Of a DNA stretch of 30,049 nt, positions 1,666 to 25,727 are shown in pieces. Position numbers and translations under genes: made by a program. The notes under the pieces are model-generated. The model ran no database searches. It was not told where the DNA came from and saw only the letters and a list, made by a program, of their open reading frames with translations. Source of the stretch: a virus (Duplodnaviria; Heunggongvirae; Uroviricota; Caudoviricetes); the IMG/VR virus record IMGVR_UViG_2667528045_000005; one strand, 5' to 3'. Numbering within the stretch: position 1 is the stretch's first letter; the number at the start of each line of letters is the position of its first letter.

Positions 1666-4110
1666 TCAATAGTCGTGGGTCATGTTGGCACGCTGGCGGG
1701 CGCGTTTATCGCGCTCAATCTGTTCGAGCGTGTCGCGTAGTTGTCTGTCAAGCTGATGCCCCGGCGCAACACCTCCCGGCAGATTGATGTTGTATTCGCT
1801 TTTGCTCTGGTCAATGTAAGAGCGCCCCGCCGGTGCGGTAACTGGCTGATAAGCCTGATAGCCGCCATATGTGCTGGTTGCCGGGATGTAGGAATTACCC
1901 TGTGTGGCGGCATTGGTTTTGGCGGCGGTCTGGTCGAGGCTGTCCGACTCTTTGTTGATGATGCCGAGCTTTTCGAGAAGCCAGTCGACACCGCTGCGCA
2001 GCTTGTTAAAAACATTGAGCGGAGCCATCAAGGCAGAGGCCAGTGCCTGACCAAATATGACGCCGACACTTTTGCAGCTATCAAGCGTTTCCTGCGTGGC
2101 CTTAATCGGTGCTATCAGGTCTTTAAACCACTGCCAGACGCCGCGCAGTTTCTCGCCGAGACCATCAAAAATGGGAGCCAGTGGAGCGAACATTTCCCCG
2201 ACTGGGGCAAAGGCACTCATGATGCCCTCAATCACTCCCGAGAAAAATGCGCTGATGGGCTCCCAATATTTACGGATGAGTAGCGCCCCCGCCACAATCG
2301 CCGCACCGACGGCCACTATCGGCCAGGTAATCGCACCGAGCGCTGTCGCAATGGCACTACCGACGACAGTAAAGACCGTACCCAGCACGCCAGCAGCGGC
2401 GATAATGGCATTAATCCCCATGACAACCGGCCACGCAACGAGACCAATGCCGCCGATGATACCAATCAGCGCCAGCGCACCACCGGCGATGATGCCGATA
2501 GTTTCCGCTAACTCCTTGTTGTCTTTGATCCAGTCATCAAGCTTTAGCACATACCGTGTTGCTGTCTGAGTTAGCTGACGCAATGAGCTATCTTGCTGGT
2601 CGTAGAGGTCGGTACCGACGGCCTCATAAGCGGATTGAAACTCTTTGAAGTCGCCACCTAAGTTATCCTGCATAATTTTAACAAGCTCTGCGGTTTTTCC
2701 GTCTGAGGCTTTCAGGGTGGAGGTTAGCTGGTCAAGTTTGCCGGTTGAGGCGGCAGTCATGAGCACCGCCGCCGCCGAACTGGCTTCCTCACCGAATATC
2801 GTTTTCATGTATTCGGCTTGTTGACCGGTGCCGAGATTGTTACGCTCAAAACTGGCCTGCATTTCCTTGAGGATGGTAAAAATCGGGCGCGTGTTGCCTT
2901 TACTGTCGGAAGTTTTGACACCCAGCTCCTTAAGCGCATCCCACGCTTTACCGGTCGGAGCCTGCAGGCGGCTTAAAACCGCACGGCTCCCGGTGCCGGC
3001 CATCGAGCCGGTGATTTTGGCGTCATGCAGGGCGCCCACCATTGCGGCAGTTTCTTCAATGCTGACACCGGCATTTTTCGCCACCGGCGCGGCGTATGTC
3101 AGCGCATCGCTCAGCCCGTCGAAATCGGCAGCAGTTTTATTCATCACCGTCGACAGAACGTCGCCAATGTGCGCCACCTTGTCATTGGAAAGCTGAAACG
3201 CAGAGCGCATCCCCATCAGTAATGCGGCGTTTTCTTCCATCGTGCGACGGTTGGCAAGCGCCATATTGAGGGTGACCGGTGTCGTCGCCTGAATGGCTGC
3301 CGCATCGCCGCCCCCTTTGGCGATAATAATCTGCGCACTGGCTGCATCATCAGCAGAAGCGGCTGTATTGTCACCGAGCTGGCGTGCCTGTTTGCGTAGC
3401 GCCTCCATTTCTGGCGACTGCTTATCGACCCCGAGCACGGCCTGCAGCTCGGAATTTTTCTGCGCAAAGTCATAACCGGGCATCAGTAATTTCACCCCGG
3501 CCATCGTTCCCGCTGTCGCGATACCTACCCCGGCAGCCCCTGCAGCGGCCATGTTACCGGCAAGCTCCTTGCCTGATTTATATCGCTCTTTCACCCGGCC
3601 TAATTTCGCCTGCTGCGCACTGACGCGCGCCAGTGCCTCACGCTGGCGGTTAAGCTGCGCCGTCGTTTCGCTGATGGAGGTTTTGAGCCGACGCTCATCG
3701 GCAGAAAGGGTGCGGGTATTAATACCGGCCTGCATCAGTTCGGAGCGCTGGCGCTGTACAGACGTTCTCAGATTGTTGTACTTCGTCTGTAGCTCAGAGG
3801 CAGCACGCTTTGCCGCTTCGAGTGCCTGCGCCTGCGCGCGGGTCGGACTGGTGGAGTTTTTAAACTGCACGGCCAGTTCACCGGCTTCGCGTTTCGCTTT
3901 CTCAAGCGCCTGACTGGTCACGGCCAGTTGCGCACTGGCCTTACGAAAGCCGTCGATTTTTGACGCCTGACCATTCAGGTCACGCAGCCCTTTTTGTGTT
4001 TCGCGAATATCGCCCGACAGGGTTTTACTCGCGGTCTGGATGGATTTAAGCGGTCGGGTCGCCTGGTCGACCGCTTTCAGCAAAACCTCAAGTCTCAGGT
4101 TATTACTCAT
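1666..4110 (-). CDS. T: tail tape measure protein gpT
   Basis: 814 aa, Ala/Gly-rich with coiled-coil N-terminus and hydrophobic central glycine-zipper segment; follows E/E' as in P2. Confidence 0.9.
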   Translation of the reverse strand: MSNNLRLEVLLKAVDQATRPLKSIQTASKTLSGDIRETQKGLRDLNGQASKIDGFRKASAQLAVTSQALEKAKREAGELAVQFKNSTSPTRAQAQALEAAKRAASELQTKYNNLRTSVQRQRSELMQAGINTRTLSADERRLKTSISETTAQLNRQREALARVSAQQAKLGRVKERYKSGKELAGNMAAAGAAGVGIATAGTMAGVKLLMPGYDFAQKNSELQAVLGVDKQSPEMEALRKQARQLGDNTAASADDAASAQIIIAKGGGDAAAIQATTPVTLNMALANRRTMEENAALLMGMRSAFQLSNDKVAHIGDVLSTVMNKTAADFDGLSDALTYAAPVAKNAGVSIEETAAMVGALHDAKITGSMAGTGSRAVLSRLQAPTGKAWDALKELGVKTSDSKGNTRPIFTILKEMQASFERNNLGTGQQAEYMKTIFGEEASSAAAVLMTAASTGKLDQLTSTLKASDGKTAELVKIMQDNLGGDFKEFQSAYEAVGTDLYDQQDSSLRQLTQTATRYVLKLDDWIKDNKELAETIGIIAGGALALIGIIGGIGLVAWPVVMGINAIIAAAGVLGTVFTVVGSAIATALGAITWPIVAVGAAIVAGALLIRKYWEPISAFFSGVIEGIMSAFAPVGEMFAPLAPIFDGLGEKLRGVWQWFKDLIAPIKATQETLDSCKSVGVIFGQALASALMAPLNVFNKLRSGVDWLLEKLGIINKESDSLDQTAAKTNAATQGNSYIPATSTYGGYQAYQPVTAPAGRSYIDQSKSEYNINLPGGVAPGHQLDRQLRDTLEQIERDKRARQRANMTHDY

Positions 4111-20669: not shown

Positions 20670-21674
20670 ATGGGCGCGGAGATTAATATTTTGGAAACTG
20701 ATTTTAAAATAACCCTCGAAGGTTTCGCTACTGAGCAAGAAGCAAATAATATCGGTAATTTCACACTAGAAGCTATCCGAGCTTTAACAAAAAATCTCAA
20801 TCTTGATATCTCCAAATTAAAATGCGTGATTGTTTCCTATAACTTCAGTGAAGCTCTTCAAAAGGTAACATCCTCTTACCAACACAAATCCCCTAGTTCA
20901 TTTACCAATAGCAAACAGGGCGCAGCCGTCGGGCAGTTAGTAACAAAAATTGGCAATGATGGGCTATGTGAAGAATATACCCTTGTGCTATCGATTGATT
21001 TTTTTGTTGAGCTTTTCAATGATGGTAGCTTCTTAAAACTGAAAGAAGAAGGATACCTCGCAGTCATCCATCGCATTCACCATGAATTAGTGCACGTACA
21101 TGAAAAAAACTTACTAACATGCTTAGCCCAAAACTTTACAGTCAACGAGTATGGTAGCGCGCTTCTTATCTCAGCCACGCGTGCATGGTCTGAATATCTC
21201 GCTAATTACATGTCTTCGGGGTCTGCCCCTCAAGAAACTATCGATTTATTTTTAGAGAATCTTGACACTGTTGTAAATGAAGTATCTGACGAGATTGAAA
21301 AACTCATCTGGGGTTATAAGTACGGTAATATTTCTCTGAATGACATGTATCTTGAAGTAAAAAAACGTATCAGGCTAATCATCAACTCTTATGCTTATGC
21401 GATGGGTTATGTCCATTCTCTAAACATCAATATTAAAGAATACGATCCAAAGCTATCCCTTACACTATCCAACTCAAAGATAAGATATCAATTATCAGAA
21501 TTAGGCATTGCTTTTCAGAATCTTTATGGGAAGTTTAATGACCAGCACATTACAGGTTTTGGTGATTTTCGGGAGATAACAATAATCATTGATGAAATAT
21601 TCAAGCAGTTTGGGCTTGTTTTAGAGTGTCCCGATTGGTCTGGCGACGGTGAACTCTACATACATGTAAATTAG
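20670..21674 (+). CDS. hypothetical protein, AT-rich orphan gene; HRIHHELVHVHE segment (HExxH-like or HEPN-like)
   Basis: 334-aa intact ORF; markedly lower GC than flanking phage genes; inserted between portal Q and cos. Confidence 0.6.
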   Translation: MGAEINILETDFKITLEGFATEQEANNIGNFTLEAIRALTKNLNLDISKLKCVIVSYNFSEALQKVTSSYQHKSPSSFTNSKQGAAVGQLVTKIGNDGLCEEYTLVLSIDFFVELFNDGSFLKLKEEGYLAVIHRIHHELVHVHEKNLLTCLAQNFTVNEYGSALLISATRAWSEYLANYMSSGSAPQETIDLFLENLDTVVNEVSDEIEKLIWGYKYGNISLNDMYLEVKKRIRLIINSYAYAMGYVHSLNINIKEYDPKLSLTLSNSKIRYQLSELGIAFQNLYGKFNDQHITGFGDFREITIIIDEIFKQFGLVLECPDWSGDGELYIHVN

Positions 21675-21912: not shown

Positions 21913-22072
21913 TGCCCGCTTTATGGGGCGGTTTTAATGCAGTTGCATGACAACTCTGGATCCGCGCTAGCTCTGGCGGCGCACGGACAGAACGGGCAAG
22001 ACTGACGCATGCAAAACCATGCACCTAATGCATGCACGACTAAAAAACGGGAAATTCGCGGAAAAATGGCAT

Positions 22073-22106
22073 AAAAAAACCGGCATTCAGGGTGCCGGTT
22101 TTAGTC
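22073..22106. terminator. bidirectional intrinsic terminator
   Basis: A7 - CCGGCA TTCAGGG TGCCGG - TTTT; on the minus strand the hairpin is followed by seven Ts. Confidence 0.6.
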
Positions 22107-22120
22107 TGGTTTTGTCGCGA

Positions 22121-22222
22121 TTAATGGCCGCGCAATGCGCCAATAACACTGTTGAGGCACATGCTGGCAAAAATCATCAGAAAAATCGTCGTCCACGGAT
22201 TTTCATAAACGAGAGATAACAT
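22121..22222 (-). CDS. possible small hydrophobic membrane peptide (33 aa)
   Basis: MLSLVYENPWTTIFLMIFASMCLNSVIGALRGH; AAGAGGA upstream of the ATG; last ORF before the terminator; not in the ORF track (under 60 aa). Confidence 0.25.
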   Translation of the reverse strand: MLSLVYENPWTTIFLMIFASMCLNSVIGALRGH

Positions 22223-22238
22223 ATTTATATAGTTCCTC

Positions 22239-22523
22239 TTATTTGCGCATTCTGATGTGATTTAACAGGTGTTTGATAACGACTGATAGCTCATCTTTAC
22301 CGGCCTGCTCGACCATTTTTGCGGTGTAGCTTTCCACCTCGCGAGAGCTCAGGTCGTTATTTAAAGCCATTAAAGTCAGATTCTTTGCCCAATCGGCAAA
22401 CGGGTCATTTTTCGATGAAAGGGGATTTTGCATGTCCAAAAACCTCGAATTATTTAACCAGCAGACGGTTGAAGTATTTGCGACGCTATGACCGGCTAAC
22501 GCCTCGCGTAGCTCGTTGTTCAA
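22239..22523 (-). CDS. hypothetical protein (start uncertain: TTG at 22523 or ATG at 22433)
   Basis: 94-aa ORF in the cos-proximal island; N-terminal codons overlap repeat copy R1. Confidence 0.4.
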   Translation of the reverse strand: MNNELREALAGHSVANTSTVCWLNNSRFLDMQNPLSSKNDPFADWAKNLTLMALNNDLSSREVESYTAKMVEQAGKDELSVVIKHLLNHIRMRK

Positions 22524-22564
22524 CCCCGCCAGACCTGAAAGCGAGTTTCAGCTCCGGCGGCGTT
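22496..22564. repeat. 69-bp structured direct repeat, copy R1
   Basis: 60/69 identical to 22901-22969, no gaps; contains imperfect palindrome CCGCCAG..CTGAAA..TTTCAG..CCGGCGG; starts right after the 69-aa ORF stop. Confidence 0.6.
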
Positions 22565-22566
22565 AT

Positions 22567-22776
22567 CTATGGTCGACGTGGTGGCGGTGAGTAATGTGTC
22601 GGCTTGCTGATGCTATCCAGCTTGCCGTAATTATCCCTGACTATTTCGGCACACCCGACCAGCTCGGCGGGTGTCAAATTCTCATTGACCATTATCTGCT
22701 GCAGACGATGAACGATGGCCATCAGTTTGATGCTTTTAGTTTTGTGCTGCGGAATTTCGCCCGGTAGTCGATGCAT
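22567..22776 (-). CDS. hypothetical protein (69 aa)
   Basis: ORF with GAGGG RBS; bracketed by the two 69-bp repeats. Confidence 0.4.
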   Translation of the reverse strand: MHRLPGEIPQHKTKSIKLMAIVHRLQQIMVNENLTPAELVGCAEIVRDNYGKLDSISKPTHYSPPPRRP

Positions 22777-22900
22777 ATTATCGCCCTCAATGAATTTTAT
22801 TTAGCGCTGCCACAGCGCCACTATAAAACCCGCTAAGGTAACGTCCCATTCATCACTGGTGTGTAACCAATAAAACATCGAGAAACTTTGAGAGGAAGAA

Positions 22901-22969
22901 CTAGCGCCTCGCGGTGCGAGTTGTTCAACCCCGCCAGCACTGAAAGCAAGTTTCAGCACCGGCGGCGTT
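22901..22969. repeat. 69-bp structured direct repeat, copy R2
   Basis: Copy of R1; starts right after the DinI-like stop codon. Confidence 0.6.
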
Positions 22970-22971
22970 TG

Positions 22972-23205
22972 TTAATGCAGCCAGCTATCGTCCTCCCATA
23001 CCTGCTGCATGATTTCCATTACTCGTTTTTTATCTTCGTCCAGTTTCAAACCGCTTAGTTCAACGCCATTAGCGGAGCCCTTGCGAATTCGGATAGCAGT
23101 CTTTGGGTAAATAGGTTGAAGATTGCGGTACAGTTCAGCCTCAAGTGCATCCAATGTTGCCTGACTAATTTTTTGCTCTTTATCCAACGTGATATTGATT
23201 CTCAT
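22972..23205 (-). CDS. dinI: DinI-family protein
   Basis: 77 aa; MRINITLDK...LDALEAELYRNLQPIYP...DEDKKRVMEIMQQVWEDDSW aligns along its length with E. coli DinI. Confidence 0.82.
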   Translation of the reverse strand: MRINITLDKEQKISQATLDALEAELYRNLQPIYPKTAIRIRKGSANGVELSGLKLDEDKKRVMEIMQQVWEDDSWLH

Positions 23206-23208
23206 AAT

Positions 23209-23391
23209 CTAATCAGCCTTATAAAAATTATCATCTTCGGTTTCGTTATTTTCGCTGTTTGCTAGGTCTGCAATGAGAGTGAGCGCGAGCTTTAAGTCTG
23301 ATGGCTTGCAGTTTGCAATCAGAGATACCTCGGCAATAAATTGCACACAAGCCCACTTTTGCTGCGTTCGGCTGAAATGTTCGCCAACCAT
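23209..23391 (-). CDS. hypothetical small protein; candidate SOS-induced antirepressor (Tum-like) by position
   Basis: 60 aa, acidic C-terminus; first gene after the LexA box; stop 4 nt before the dinI-like start. Confidence 0.4.
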   Translation of the reverse strand: MVGEHFSRTQQKWACVQFIAEVSLIANCKPSDLKLALTLIADLANSENNETEDDNFYKAD

Positions 23392-23410
23392 GAAATCCCT
23401 CCCACAGGGT

Positions 23411-23430
23411 TACTGTATATTTATACAGTA
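23411..23430. promoter_or_regulatory. LexA operator (SOS box) overlapping a minus-strand promoter
   Basis: TACTGTATATTTATACAGTA fits CTGT-N8-ACAG consensus perfectly; minus strand has TTGCCA upstream and an AT-rich -10 inside the box; GGGAGGG RBS then ATG of the 60-aa ORF. Confidence 0.8.
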
Positions 23431-23504
23431 GCACGTATTGGCAAAAGATGGGAAGAAAAAAAACGAATAGAGCGATTGCTGTATGTGCATGATATGGATA
23501 TGAA

Positions 23505-25727
23505 TTACTCATGTATTGGTTTTGATGCTTCAGCCATCGCCGCAACACGATTAAGGATTTTCCGAGCTTTAGCCTCATGCGATGGTGCTGCGGAAAATAT
23601 TTCTCCTTTGGCCGTTCCGCGTAGCCATTTACCATCAAAACAACTTTTACCACCGGCCATCAGGTGCAGGGCTTCGCCCCGGCTGATATTAATGCCGGTT
23701 GTCAGATGTATCTCATCGATAGTTTTAGCTATAGCTGCGTTTTGCTCATCCGTTCCGTGGATGAATTTTCGCCGTGCTGCTGGCTTTTGCTTCCTGAGTC
23801 GGTTGGTCAATTCTCGTCTTTCACGCCGACTCAGTGGTTTTGTTAAATCCAGTATCGGTGGATCGCTTTCGCTTCCCGTACAGTTATTGACAGAACTCCG
23901 AGGGACGGCTTTGCCGTCCTGAAGGTCAACGGCCAAATCAACAGCACGCTTCGGAACAATCTTCCACTGAGTGAGCCGGGTTAAAATCGGGCTTCCTGCA
24001 CCTATGGAGGAATCGTAGACCCCCTTAATACATACCGTTTCCTCACCGTACTGATTAAGCTCGGTGCGCGGTTCATACAGTGTGCGCACCTGTAAATCAT
24101 CGCGACGGACAAACGGCCCACCCTGAGCATTAACATAACCAGCCCAGTCACCAGCGTCGGCGGCATCATGGACGGCGGCAAACTCAACGCTCAGACCGTG
24201 CGCGGTTTCGGTATCAGCGAGGCGACGCAACTCACGGTAAACCGTCACCGGCGCACCACCAATAAACTGAAACTGACGGATGTGCCAGCGCGCAGCCCAT
24301 GCTGAAACGGCGGGGGCTGTCTCTTTCAGCAGCTCACCGCTTTCATCATCGGTTTCACCATCGAGAGCATAACCGTCGATATTTTTTGAAATGTATTTAG
24401 CAACATAGCCGGTTGCGCTGCCTTTCTCCGGGTCAATGGACTCGGCGTGGAAACGTGCTTTTTTGGATTTATCGCTTTTCAGTTCGTGGCGGTCTTCTTT
24501 CCATGCGTATTTACGGACGATGGAGCGAACATATTCAACATCTTCCGGCAGCATGAACATCAGCATGTGCCAGTGTGGAGTGCCGTCGTGATGGGGCTCG
24601 GCGACACGAATACCGAAAATACGGACATCTTCCCGATGTAGTTTGGCACGGATACGCGCCCAGATACCGGTTAGATAGTTTTGCGTGTCAGCCGGGCTGG
24701 CACCGCTCCATTTGCTGTTACGGTAACCGGCTTTAGTCGTGGCGTGATATTTTGACGGCGCGGTTAGAGTGTAAAACTCACCGACATAACCGAGCTCATT
24801 ACAGATGTTTTCAAACCCACGAATGCGGGTCATGAGCTCACAGCGGCGAATCGCAGGGTTAGCAACTGAGCCATCATATTTTTCAATTAGGCTGATACGG
24901 TTGCCGTCTTCGTCTTCGAGATCCAGACCTTTGAGAAATTCACGAGTGCGGCGCTTTTGTTCACGCCAGTCAGTCACGCAGTTTTTACTCGCGTAAGTGT
25001 TTTTTTTCTTACTGACGTTGCCGACTGCAATTTGCAGGTGTTCGCGCCACGTAGCTGCAACACGGCGCAAACGACCGCGCCACCACCCATCGTTAAACAT
25101 TTTGGCGATAGCCGGTGCGATTTCATCCGCACCGACATATTTTTTTTCAACCCGCTCCCAATGTGGTGGGATAACGTTGAATTGGAGGGAAATAAAGCCA
25201 GCACGAATATACCAGGTGTACAGCGTTTTAAGCTCGCCGAATCCGTGGTCATTAATGTTGGCAAGTTCACCACGAATGAAATTAGCAATATCAGCGGCCA
25301 ACAGGTCAACATCAGCGCGCGACATGTCCGGGAGACGGTTATATTGGGCGACCATATTAACCATGCGTGACGACAGATATTGCATTTGCTGAGTATCAAA
25401 ATGACTTCCAAAAACAGCGGTTGATACCTTGCTGTTGATACCAGCGCATTCGTATTTTTTTGCGACCAGTTCAAGACGCGGCAATGCCTTTTTGCAGAAG
25501 CTGATTAAAAATGCATTGGCTCGTTGACTACCCTGATTTTGCTCCAGCACCGCAGCAGTGCGATAAACATCTAACCGCACGCAGTCGGGCTGGAGAGAAA
25601 GCACCTTTTTTGCATGCAGCAAAGCCGCGAACATACGGTCGCGGCGATGCTGTTGCTCATAAGTAAGGTATGGGCTGGAGATTGCCGACCGTGGGACGTT
25701 CCACGGATAAGCGAATTGAACAGCCAA
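23505..25727 (-). CDS. A: replication initiation endonuclease gpA (rolling-circle)
   Basis: 740 aa; P2 gpA-like. Confidence 0.9.
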   Translation of the reverse strand: MAVQFAYPWNVPRSAISSPYLTYEQQHRRDRMFAALLHAKKVLSLQPDCVRLDVYRTAAVLEQNQGSQRANAFLISFCKKALPRLELVAKKYECAGINSKVSTAVFGSHFDTQQMQYLSSRMVNMVAQYNRLPDMSRADVDLLAADIANFIRGELANINDHGFGELKTLYTWYIRAGFISLQFNVIPPHWERVEKKYVGADEIAPAIAKMFNDGWWRGRLRRVAATWREHLQIAVGNVSKKKNTYASKNCVTDWREQKRRTREFLKGLDLEDEDGNRISLIEKYDGSVANPAIRRCELMTRIRGFENICNELGYVGEFYTLTAPSKYHATTKAGYRNSKWSGASPADTQNYLTGIWARIRAKLHREDVRIFGIRVAEPHHDGTPHWHMLMFMLPEDVEYVRSIVRKYAWKEDRHELKSDKSKKARFHAESIDPEKGSATGYVAKYISKNIDGYALDGETDDESGELLKETAPAVSAWAARWHIRQFQFIGGAPVTVYRELRRLADTETAHGLSVEFAAVHDAADAGDWAGYVNAQGGPFVRRDDLQVRTLYEPRTELNQYGEETVCIKGVYDSSIGAGSPILTRLTQWKIVPKRAVDLAVDLQDGKAVPRSSVNNCTGSESDPPILDLTKPLSRRERRELTNRLRKQKPAARRKFIHGTDEQNAAIAKTIDEIHLTTGINISRGEALHLMAGGKSCFDGKWLRGTAKGEIFSAAPSHEAKARKILNRVAAMAEASKPIHE

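Follow-up and report, generated by a model that had tools for sequence, protein, structure and literature searches.

The window, that is, the whole 30,049-nt stretch of DNA analysed here, is the sequence of a 186/PSP3-like prophage, and harbors two copies of a 69-nt direct-repeat family, which are read on the minus (gene) strand, downstream from replication gene A and within an SOS operon (Table 1). The p95-equivalent promoter, recognized by its LexA box, is predicted to drive transcription across both copies, and the hairpin located ahead of the cos region is likely to be the end of this operon, the equivalent of terminator t95b in phage 186. The sole recombinase encoded in the window is an Int of the 186 type, which has an arm-binding N-domain and lies approximately 6 kb from the repeats, and no function was recovered from either Pfam or PADLOC for orf69, orf64, or a 334-aa ORF.

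Table 1. Features of the locus, in the order in which they are read on the minus strand (positions are those of the window).
Feature	Position	Strand	Details
Replication gene A (HUH nickase)	23505..25727	-	
LexA box TACTGTATATTTATACAGTA	23411..23430		p95-equivalent promoter, by comparison with the 186 annotation
tumA-like gene	23209..23391	-	First gene of the LexA-controlled SOS operon
DinI-family gene	22972..23205	-	tumB equivalent of PSP3; PF06183, E 7e-24
Copy R2 (69 nt)	22901..22969	-	AACGCCGCCGGTGCTGAAACTTGCTTTCAGTGCTGGCGGGGTTGAACAACTCGCACCGCGAGGCGCTAG; begins 2 nt past the DinI/TumB stop codon; 90.7 bits
HP1 of R2, element positions 1-43	22927..22969	-	AAC/GUU clamp, G.G mismatch
HP2 of R2, element positions 45-67	22903..22925	-	AAC-AA-[CUCGC ACC GCGAG]-GC-GCU
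Spacer between R2 and orf69 (124 nt)	22777..22900	-	Contains the ribosome-binding site of orf69
orf69 (69 aa)	22567..22776	-	phrog_11386, no function assigned
Copy R1 (69 nt)	22496..22564	-	AACGCCGCCGGAGCTGAAACTCGCTTTCAGGTCTGGCGGGGTTGAACAACGAGCTACGCGAGGCGTTAG; begins 2 nt past the orf69 stop codon; 92.8 bits
HP1 of R1, element positions 1-43	22522..22564	-	
HP2 of R1, element positions 45-67	22498..22520	-	CGAGC UAC GCGAG, flanks AAC-AA and GC-GUU
orf64 (64 aa)	22239..22433	-	phrog_2454; gene downstream of R1; ATG 22433
Hairpin	22076..22102		U-tracts on both strands; just before the cos region

The two copies are spaced 405 nt apart, and are identical, with no gaps, at 60 of their 69 positions (87%), as the initial annotation had proposed; the repeat search agrees with a covariance model built on the copies of other phages, which recovers both at their exact coordinates on the minus strand. 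An 18-mer core is common to both copies, and was observed twice, in comparison with the 0.01 occurrences expected from shuffles. No third copy was found by the covariance model in the whole window, where only weak mirror matches of the palindrome were recovered besides. The initial annotation had also described an imperfect palindrome within each copy and a position just past the stop codon of a minus-strand gene (the 69-aa ORF and the DinI-like ORF), and both descriptions proved correct, with an offset of 2 nt. The idea that R1 supplies the TTG start of a 94-aa ORF, by contrast, is unlikely, and the 64-aa gene is the more probable alternative. The PHROG profile (64 positions) covers residues 1-64 of the shorter orf64, the annotation of phage SW9 has the 64-aa form, and the TTG-extended reading is probably spurious. 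The 69-nt two-hairpin element is referred to below as X.

Structure and conservation of the element

X is made up of two hairpins, HP1 and HP2, separated by an unpaired G at position 44. HP1 is a hairpin of 19-20 bp, in which a stem of approximately 15 bp is framed by AAC and GUU, with a 1x1 mismatch and no bulges, and the shorter HP2 is likewise bracketed by AAC...GUU. In R2, the 15-bp stem of HP1 includes three G.U pairs and ends in a loop of 5 nt, and HP2 is the CUCGC variant, in which all the pairs are Watson-Crick. Stem positions 12/32 and 13/31 are A-U and G.G in R1, as against U.G and G.U in R2, and the HP2 of R1 has a tandem G.A/A.G. The two-hairpin fold was obtained independently by RNAalifold.

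Judged from the comparison of its copies, this fold has clearly been kept by evolution. In an alignment of 68 diverse copies, compensatory double changes were found in 15 of the 20 pairs of HP1 (155 cells), and the covariation exceeded, by every measure, all 500 shuffles and all the slid-partner controls. The arms of HP1 may even be swapped wholesale for unrelated sequences that still pair, as in CTACAGGTGA/TCACCTGTAG and TTGCGGACGATAAAA/TTTTACCGTCCGCAA. Most of the 34 copies omitted from this alignment (31) have the same kind of hairpin, mostly with the register shifted by 1-2 nt, and the other three are matches from non-enteric genomes that fit the search pattern only, and were taken to be chance.

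The pairing is specific to one strand. Pairs of the G.U type (167 cells) far outnumber A.C mismatches (19 cells), and in 137 of the 144 unique copies, the gene strand has the more stable fold of the two strands, with a mean difference of 8.7 kcal/mol, an advantage that holds for the copies in the window under both RNA and DNA parameters. Single-stranded DNA of the gene strand accounts equally well for the pairing data. In a sample selected by gene A alone, the AAC is conserved in 100% of the copies, the junction in 97.5%, and the tail in 97%, in comparison with 46% for the loop of HP2, and the bifurcation region is the most conserved part of X. The option of a structured RNA-type element, raised in the initial annotation together with a check of folding and covariation, is thus strongly supported as far as structure is concerned, by both the covariation and the strand-specific fold.

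A number of more familiar elements were considered and rejected. The initial annotation held that the repeats are not canonical terminators, given their lack of a U-tract, and a terminator scan is indeed blank at both copies on both strands, where the combination of hairpin and U-tract required of an intrinsic terminator is missing. No match to the whole window was found in Rfam 15 at the gathering threshold, and at E<=10, mir-998 was the only match in the 22000-23500 region to overlap a copy. It lies on the plus (non-gene) strand, with 19.5 bits against a gathering score of 52, and was judged to be chance, and the other weak matches are located elsewhere; neither threshold provides a credible known RNA family. 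ARAGORN finds no tRNA or tmRNA-like gene in the window, and there is no sigma-70-like site in the region to represent a promoter within X, where the TTGAAC found at positions 42-47 lacks a usable -10. X amounts to 23 codons, and both window copies are open in the reading frame of the upstream ORF. Coding by X, or read-through of the stop codon, is nonetheless rejected, as this frame is closed in 39 of the 175 unique copies, and its peptide is not conserved.

Some shorter motifs were dismissed in the same way. The 3' arm of HP1 contains a Chi-like octamer, GCTGGCGG, which is one base off Chi and correctly oriented toward cos; it is not conserved in the divergent copies, where this arm covaries freely. 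A LexA-box-like CTG-N11-CAG at the apex of HP1 has the wrong spacing, and is not conserved. The ends of X are inverted relative to one another (CAAACGCC / GGCGTTAG, 7/8 matching), but an origin from a MITE or IS is rejected, with no duplication of the flanking bases, and all the copies in a single class of genomic position.

Distribution and recombination of the copies

The search in related prophages suggested in the initial annotation was productive. X is present in phage 186, Wphi, and hundreds of Peduoviridae prophages of the Enterobacterales, at the edge of variable cargo and with unrelated flanks, and its structure is conserved there. A survey of Escherichia coli located 599 X sites in 526 of 5426 genomes, with a maximum of three per genome, and all the sites inspected lie inside P2-like prophages. 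Apparent occurrences outside these prophages were discarded, the matches in plasmids being P2-like prophages carried in IncC plasmids. No description of X was found in the accessible literature.

The genomic position is equally regular. X lies at the inner edge of the cos-adjacent variable region, just where the conserved genes of the SOS/early operon have ended, and its orientation always agrees with that of gene A. Among the 221 contexts with enough upstream sequence, gene A precedes X on the same strand in 213. In phage 186, for example, the annotation places X within the mapped p95 transcript, between orf97 and t95b, 8 nt past the former and 23 nt ahead of the latter. The DinI-family gene is the most common direct upstream neighbor, and the orf69 family is found ahead of X in both P2-type and 186-type phages. 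Of 185 unique contexts, 149 have the start of X within 15 nt of a stop codon, and in 82, the distance is exactly 2 nt; a stop triplet 2 nt upstream was recorded in 91 of 152 contexts. No terminator is present within 400 nt downstream in 105 of 186 downstream contexts, so that X is often intercistronic, rather than the 3' end of a transcript. X is also missing from P2 and 29 of 78 close relatives, that is, approximately one third, and is thus accessory, which implies that any benefit it provides is either modest or dependent on context. For the same reason, an essential replication or packaging signal was rejected.

The flanks of X have been reassorted extensively, with 15-19 upstream families crossed with 36-41 downstream families. 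Conservation is 0.75 or less ahead of X and 0.99 at position 1, and falls from 1.0 to 0.56 after position 69, and the polymorphisms of the 5' half of X follow the flank upstream of X more closely than the one downstream. Arrays of the gene-X-gene-X type exist, although orf69 is the only internal "cassette" encountered, always accompanied by the 124-nt spacer in the two-copy arrays. Natural deletion derivatives have the arrangement DinI-X-orf64. In one of these (L262), X is an R2/R1 hybrid, with a crossover between positions 33 and 50, and in two others (L085 and L144) it is of the R1 type from end to end, which would place the crossover at or before position 11.

The two copies recombine with each other, at what appear to be differing crossover points, and this recombination deletes orf69, with the upstream and downstream modules being reassorted across X. 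As its 69 bp are nearly invariant, X constitutes a homology patch for recombination. The cassette-boundary or recombination element envisaged in the initial annotation is upheld, then, with regard to the position at the edge of the cargo, the reassorted flanks, and the natural recombinants, but not as a dedicated site-specific system; the evidence is rather for ordinary homologous crossover, at variable points. Rousset et al. (2022; PMC9122126) speculated that the cos end and a second homologous crossover lie behind the rapid turnover of the cargo. According to a review, the "site-specific recombination" of Nilsson et al. (2004) concerns the inverted repeats that surround fun in the Z locus, and not the site of X.

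Possible functions of X

The explanation favored here, with a probability of roughly 0.45, is that X may be a cis-acting RNA structure located by the stop codon, functioning as a decay barrier or a processing/insulator module, and also as a DNA homology anchor. The strand bias and the position of X indicate that it most likely acts as RNA in the transcript of the SOS/early operon. As X begins 2 nt past the stop codon, a terminating ribosome would come up against the base of HP1 and melt it in part. X would block 3'-to-5' decay stably, or would serve as a processing module, and would fix the fate of the conserved upstream mRNA regardless of the cargo downstream. By analogy with REP sequences, X may also damp the termination and expression of the upstream gene, given its closeness to the stop codon. 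This explanation is weakened by the equally good fit of the pairing data to single-stranded DNA, by the often intercistronic position of X, and by its absence from P2 and 29 of 78 close relatives. In addition, the bases of the hairpins, the junction, and HP2 are nearly invariant, which exceeds the needs of a generic stabilizer, and suggests that X may have a sequence-specific partner.

The REP/BIME sequences resemble X in being stable imperfect hairpins found in transcribed intergenic or 3' regions, often approximately 15 nt or less from a stop codon. The REP hairpins are barriers to 3' exonucleases and modulators of translation termination, and those close to stop codons are reported to damp the termination or expression of the upstream gene. 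They are dispersed over the chromosome in hundreds of copies, however, whereas X is present in 1-3 copies per genome, in P2-like prophages only, and has two hairpins and an invariant AAC/GUU clamp, without the GTAG motif or an association with RAYT. The intercistronic RNase III/processing hairpins of phage T7 and the lambda sib retroregulator are also repeated stems of approximately 20 bp, located between or after the genes of an operon. These hairpins set the stability of the upstream message, a role that is only proposed for X, and RNase III sites do not have the strict sequence conservation seen at the base of X.

In a rather unlikely alternative, X would not be a passive barrier, but an RNA with a specific machine or factor as its binding partner, either as a put-like modifier of the RNA polymerase in cis, or as a trans-acting RNA or protein sponge derived from the 3'UTR. 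In the put-like version, the polymerase would be modified so as to carry on transcribing into the cargo, which lies downstream from X and could bring its own terminators. The putL and putR RNAs of HK022 are also phage-encoded and cis-acting, a mode of action inferred for X, are used in two copies, and have a similar architecture of approximately 70 nt, with two stem-loops and an unpaired G at the bifurcation (PMC9378689), which is where the conservation of X peaks, as expected of a binding platform. The put sites follow an early promoter, however, in contrast with the position of X at the end of an operon, and the X model finds nothing near PL or PR in the HK022 genome, where the best match has 9.1 bits (E 1.9), with Rfam also blank. 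In phage 186, moreover, the annotation has the p95 transcript end at t95b, a terminator reported to be functional only 23 nt past X, which argues against strong antitermination. As for action in trans, X has no promoter of its own, and no target complementary to the conserved linker GUUGAACAAC was found above chance within the window. Less probable still is a terminator or insulator working in the opposite direction, to halt antisense transcription from the cargo into the SOS/early operon, which is most improbable. Many of the cargo genes converge on X, and the antisense strand presents a G+C-rich stem followed by a moderately U-rich tract, GUUUGUUAAU, but folding is far poorer on the antisense strand, whose consensus contains three A.C mismatches and whose z-scores are -1.5 to -1.7, selection favors G.U on the sense strand, and the terminator scan is blank. 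A signal for single-strand initiation (priming or helicase loading) on the presumed displaced strand during the rolling-circle replication driven by protein A is also highly unlikely. This would fit a strand-specific pair of hairpins that follows the origin inside gene A by 0.5-2.2 kb, in constant orientation relative to A and able to fold under DNA parameters. It is opposed by the absence of X from P2 and the 29 of 78 close relatives, whose A genes are near-identical, by the variable distance between the origin and X, and by the lack of evident similarity to the nick-site sequence of gene A.

The structure-specific recombination of single-stranded DNA, as at the attC sites of integrons, with gene-X units being captured and shuffled as cassettes, is distinctly unlikely. 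The version in which X would be a phage counterpart of attC, recognized as a folded strand by an enzyme of the host or the phage, is a little more doubtful, and the gene-X units and the cos-proximal defense cargo would, on this account, be swapped at a nucleotide-precise junction. Like attC, X lies directly past ORFs, marks the edge of exchangeable genes, and occurs in gene-X-gene-X arrays, and its sequence is conserved only in the AAC/GTT cores on either side of a palindrome, which varies in sequence while its pairing is kept. Both edges of X are nucleotide-sharp against more than 30 unrelated downstream sequences, and the crossover interval of L262 (33-50) takes in the G|TT of HP1. The 3' side of the attC core also fits, with GTTGAAC at positions 41-47 (or GTTAG at 65-69), and the ends of HP1, GTTGAAC, GTTGAGT, or GTTGAAT, all conform to GTTRRRY. 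The 5' heptamers (AGCAAAC, AACAAAC, or GACAAAC) do not conform to RYYYAAC, however, and their pairing with GTTGAAC stops at the 3 bp of AAC/GTT. X has neither extrahelical bases nor an unpaired spacer at its center, adds another conserved hairpin, and folds best as the coding strand, whereas attC does so as the bottom strand. There is no IntI, attI, or Pc in the window, only the 186-type Int, and the related loci are limited to gene A, tum, and portal contexts. In addition, L085 and L144 imply a crossover position other than that of L262, no gene but orf69 is ever internal, and in P2-like phages without X, the turnover of the cargo hotspots is just the same (PMC9122126). Another improbable reading denies X any structural function, and considers it to be a conserved linker kept for the homologous exchange of modules between phages. 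This has in its favor the reassorted flanks, the recombining copies, and the 5'-half polymorphisms that track the upstream flank, and it recalls the short conserved stretches at the module junctions of mosaic lambdoid phages, whose flanks are reassorted by homologous recombination. These lambdoid linkers are not known to need a secondary structure, while X adds one that has been selected, with covariation. A linker predicts conservation of sequence, rather than the compensatory swapping of both arms of HP1 with the pairing maintained, and does not predict a strong strand asymmetry; the covariation largely refutes this reading. Finally, a chance similarity or the decaying relic of a local tandem duplication is refuted, of which a relic of tandem duplication was among the options of the initial annotation. 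The window does hold just two copies, 405 nt apart, but the core occurs far more often than chance would predict, only the 69 nt are common to the two copies, the flanks of which are unrelated, and single copies with a conserved fold and unrelated flanks are found in 186, Wphi, and hundreds of other phages.

Relevance to P2-like prophages

The P2-like prophages are present in approximately one third of complete E. coli genomes, and their cos-adjacent site is among the best-known hotspots of anti-phage defense genes. In a sizeable subset of these phages, X marks the inner edge of the variable region with a landmark that is both conserved and structured. It demonstrably recombines, and provides a concrete experimental handle on the exchange of cargo. 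It is also a candidate point of post-transcriptional control in the SOS (tum/dinI) operon that governs the induction of the prophage. If X is simply a stabilizing hairpin, it would be an element of an ordinary kind that happens to have left an unusually clean signature in evolution. X is a new and well-supported structured motif for the databases of RNA and DNA families, and for the annotation of prophages. Several genome annotations place spurious ORFs across X.

The repeat and its locus in the window

The window is a prophage of the 186/PSP3-like (Eganvirus) type, with CI, CII and Int on the other side of gene A from the features listed below. The two 69-nt direct repeats of the initial annotation, R2 and R1, are confirmed (60/69 identical, ungapped, 405 nt apart); an 18-nt core of the copies occurs twice, against 0.01 occurrences expected by chance. 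A covariance model trained on the copies of other phages scored 92.8 and 90.7 bits at exactly these two places, on the minus strand, and found no third copy within the window. As first noted, each copy adjoins a stop codon, starting 2 nt past that of the upstream gene, and neither is followed by a U-tract. The 94-aa ORF initially proposed, with its TTG start inside R1, is probably artefactual: the form annotated in relatives and matched by the PHROG profile has 64 aa and starts at ATG 22433.

Features around the repeat, in the order of the minus-strand genes
Feature	Position	Strand	Remarks
Replication gene A	25727..23505	-	Phage_GPA
LexA box TACTGTATATTTATACAGTA	23411-23430		Near-perfect; just upstream of the tumA-like gene
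tumA-like gene	23391..23209	-	After gene A and the LexA box
DinI-family gene	23205..22972	-	PF06183
Copy R2	22901-22969	-	Downstream of the DinI-family gene; followed by a 124-nt spacer
orf69	22776..22567	-	Between the spacer and R1
Copy R1	22496-22564	-	Between orf69 and orf64
orf64	22433..22239	-	After R1; followed by a 33-codon ORF
Bidirectional terminator-like hairpin AAAACCGGCATTCAGGGTGCCGGTTTT	22076-22102		After the 33-codon ORF; 12 bp, A-runs and T-runs on either side
334-aa ORF	20670-21674	+	Flanked by the portal gene and the cos region

The position of the LexA box places both copies in an SOS-induced transcript, comparable to the p95 operon of phage 186. The terminator-like hairpin, the positional counterpart of t95b in that phage, could act as a two-way terminator between the SOS operon and cos. 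It is followed by a stretch that matches phage 186 at its right (cos) end, by the 334-aa ORF, which is AT-rich, and, on the other strand, by the portal and terminase genes. The stretch of this ORF has 33-41% G+C, against 55-60% in the phage backbone; its sole match is phrog_11743 (function unknown), and Pfam and PADLOC searches returned none. It is a candidate for a horizontally acquired cargo or defence gene across cos.

Fold, covariation and strand preference

On the gene strand, the consensus of the element (X; AACGCCGCCGGTGCTGAAACTCGCTTTCAGTGCTGGCGGGGTTGAACAACGAGCCCCGCGAGGCGTTAG) forms two hairpins separated by an unpaired G44. The first (HP1, positions 1-43) consists of three AAC/GUU pairs and a 15-bp stem, separated by a mismatch at 4/40 (usually G.G), and is capped by a 5-nt loop. 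The second (HP2, positions 45-67) has the form AAC-AA-[CGAGC NNN GCGAG]-GC-GUU; its inner G-A/A-G forms a tandem mismatch, replaced by two Watson-Crick pairs in the CUCGC variant seen in R2. The structure suspected initially from a palindrome in each copy was borne out, given that unguided RNAalifold recovered the same two-hairpin fold and that HP1 covariation exceeded all shuffles.

A first set of 66 copies, recovered by a pattern in which the 3' arm was fixed, showed 96.7% pairing in HP1 and more covariation than any of 500 shuffles. A second scan, anchored solely on the 3' half (positions 41-69) and thus leaving HP1 unconstrained, recovered many unrelated arm sequences with the pairing kept. 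In 68 copies of this set, compensatory double changes affected 15 of the 20 HP1 pairs (155 cells; here and below, cells are counted over mutually related sequences, and are not independent events), and all five covariation measures exceeded every shuffle and every slid control. Inclusion required at least 11 of 15 in-register pairs, a threshold passed by 144 of the 178 unique sequences; 31 of the 34 rejected form the same AAC-stem-GUU hairpin, mostly with the register shifted by 1-2 nt, and the remaining three are chance hits. Among loci chosen by gene A, conservation peaks at 100% in the AAC clamp, 97.5% in the junction (positions 40-50) and 97% in the tail (63-69); the HP2 loop, at 46%, varies freely.

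The pairs are also asymmetric between strands, with 167 cells of G.U against 19 of A.C, and three G.U pairs in the consensus itself. Of 144 unique copies, 137 fold more stably on the gene strand than on its complement, with a mean difference of 8.7 kcal/mol; for the window copies, RNA energies are -30.7 and -35.5 kcal/mol (complement, -22.4 and -25.3), and DNA parameters give -20.7 and -20.8 (complement, -12.8 and -13.9). Given this, the structured strand is the one transcribed with the genes, although the pairing data fit RNA or single-stranded DNA of that strand alike and cannot alone separate them. The element is established as a real, selected and strand-specific double hairpin.

A recurrent GA<->TC polymorphism at positions 51-52 (22918-22919 in R2, 22513-22514 in R1) turns the HP2 arm CGAGC, which forms the tandem G.A with GCGAG, into the fully complementary CTCGC. 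It recurs across many unrelated flank contexts, and looks like quasi-palindrome (template-switch) correction.

Distribution and genomic context

A 1.4-kb query against phage 186 gave a sole match of 72 nt around R2 (93% identity), where the element (30344-30412) lies 8 nt past orf97 and 23 nt ahead of the mapped terminator t95b, between flanks otherwise unrelated to those of the window. The element is widespread, and its origin as a relic of local tandem duplication, one of the options raised initially, is not borne out and is unlikely. PSP3 and SW9 share the two-copy layout of the window, and Wphi and P2-EC58 have a single copy, which borders the variable tin/old ('TO') region on its inner side. 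Matches were found in 66 phage records, with Escherichia, Salmonella, Klebsiella, Yersinia and Erwinia as hosts, and pattern scans recovered at least 120 stretches in viral contigs and at least 120 in metagenome contigs. With one genome scanned per species, the element occurs in the Enterobacterales only; three hits beyond this order, the chance hits mentioned above, fit the search pattern alone. In E. coli, 526 of 5426 complete genomes carry it, at 1-3 places each, and 1724 of the same genomes have a P2-type A gene. Rfam has no family for the element, the 186, PSP3, Wphi and RefSeq records carry no annotation of it, and no description was found in the accessible literature, a coverage outside which some key P2 papers lie. 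It was filed with the conserved cis-acting hairpin modules and module-boundary sequences of phage operons.

Eighty viral loci were selected by gene A similarity alone (85-100% identity). Downstream sequence was present for 78, of which 49 have the element, 15 of them in two copies, always on the strand of A and 540-2200 nt past its stop codon. In the other 29, the tumA-like gene leads straight into cargo, such as a cytosine methylase with its own promoter, and in P2, 38 nt separate orf91 from tin, with no element; the element is thus dispensable. When every retrieved copy is considered, 213 of the 221 contexts with enough sequence have gene A upstream on the same strand, and the portal gene follows downstream on the opposite strand, at 0.5-6 kb, reflecting variable cargo size. 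The immediate upstream gene is DinI/TumB in 142 occurrences (including alleles just 32-50% identical to that of the window), an Orf97 homologue in 66 and orf69 in 42. The distance from a stop codon to the start of the element is exactly 2 nt in 82 of 185 unique contexts and no more than 15 nt in 149; a stop triplet stands 2 nt upstream in 91 of 152, including Orf97 contexts, in which it is a second stop further downstream. It is established as an accessory part of the SOS/early-operon transcription unit, abutting stop codons.

The plasmid matches are P2-like prophages within IncC plasmids. One such region (NZ_CP025141.1 26244-38311), spanning integrase through capsid genes in the stretch viewed, has a reverse-transcriptase cargo gene adjoining the element, and sits in conjugative IncC plasmids of ~205 kb from Klebsiella, Citrobacter, Enterobacter, Providencia and E. 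coli. In many complete E. coli chromosomes and IncC plasmids, the element falls at exactly 2624-2691 or 2947-3015, and the start of one record (NZ_AP027754.1 1-6691) coincides to the base with that of prophage P2 gene A ('replication endonuclease'); start-fixing software likely took this gene as the replicon initiator.

Recombination at the element and its possible role

The edges are sharp, conservation rising from at most 0.75 to 0.99 at position 1 and falling from 1.0 to 0.56 after position 69, and 15-19 upstream flank families combine in many ways with 36-41 downstream. Polymorphisms of HP1 follow the upstream flank, and those of the HP2 loop follow both. Two-copy arrays are always X-spacer-orf69-X, preceded by either of two very different DinI alleles or by Orf97, and natural DinI-X-orf64 derivatives without orf69 occur. 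The X of one locus (L262) is a hybrid of R2 and R1 whose crossover falls within positions 33-50, and that of two others (L085, L144) is R1-type over its full length, so the copies recombine. The crossover points apparently differ, and homologous exchange or replication slippage fits better than a fixed-point site-specific mechanism. Two observations stand apart from this reading: a right edge precise to the nucleotide against many unrelated cargos, and the cargo-X joint of Wphi, which corresponds to a point inside a tum-like gene in other phages. Hotspot turnover is also present in P2-like phages without X (PMC9122126), which therefore cannot be its general driver. Of the cassette-boundary or recombination element proposed initially, what stands is that X marks, and takes part in recombination at, the conserved/variable junction, which is established; a fixed-point site-specific mechanism is the less likely one.

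The most economical mechanism, with a probability of about 0.45, is that X acts in cis as an RNA structure beside the stop codon, as a 3'-decay barrier or a processing/insulator module, in which case homology-driven recombination would be a DNA-level by-product. The bifurcation region is strictly conserved, which points to a specific partner and leaves a smaller probability for a factor-binding RNA. The HK022 put RNA shares the architecture of X (PMC9378689) but has no homology to it, and the working terminator t95b just past X in phage 186 speaks against antitermination. A folded-DNA recombination site of the attC type is less probable still, as several of its defining features were looked for and are lacking, and a replication priming signal, an antisense terminator and a pure homology linker are each unlikely.

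The 3' arm of HP1 (positions 33-40; 22929-22936, minus strand) reads GCTGGCGG, one base off Chi (GCTGGTGG), in the orientation recognised by RecBCD entering at cos; the octamer is not conserved in divergent copies, and is probably incidental.

In Wphi (L124 3071-3421), the annotated orf92 ends early, and a one-base frame change recovers the C-terminal half that is conserved across the orf69 family (MVNENLTP...PPQRRR), ending 2 nt ahead of the element; the gene is either frameshifted or missequenced. P2-EC58 has the conserved DNA (...CACCACGTTGACCATAG) downstream of the annotated stop. In Wphi (2830-3000), X is joined to a methylase cargo module that carries a promoter of its own, and the same module joins a tum-like gene directly in three other loci (L149, L155 and L163), ~290-450 nt after gene A; Wphi keeps ~20 nt of the 3' end of the tum-like gene after the element, a fossil of the joining event.
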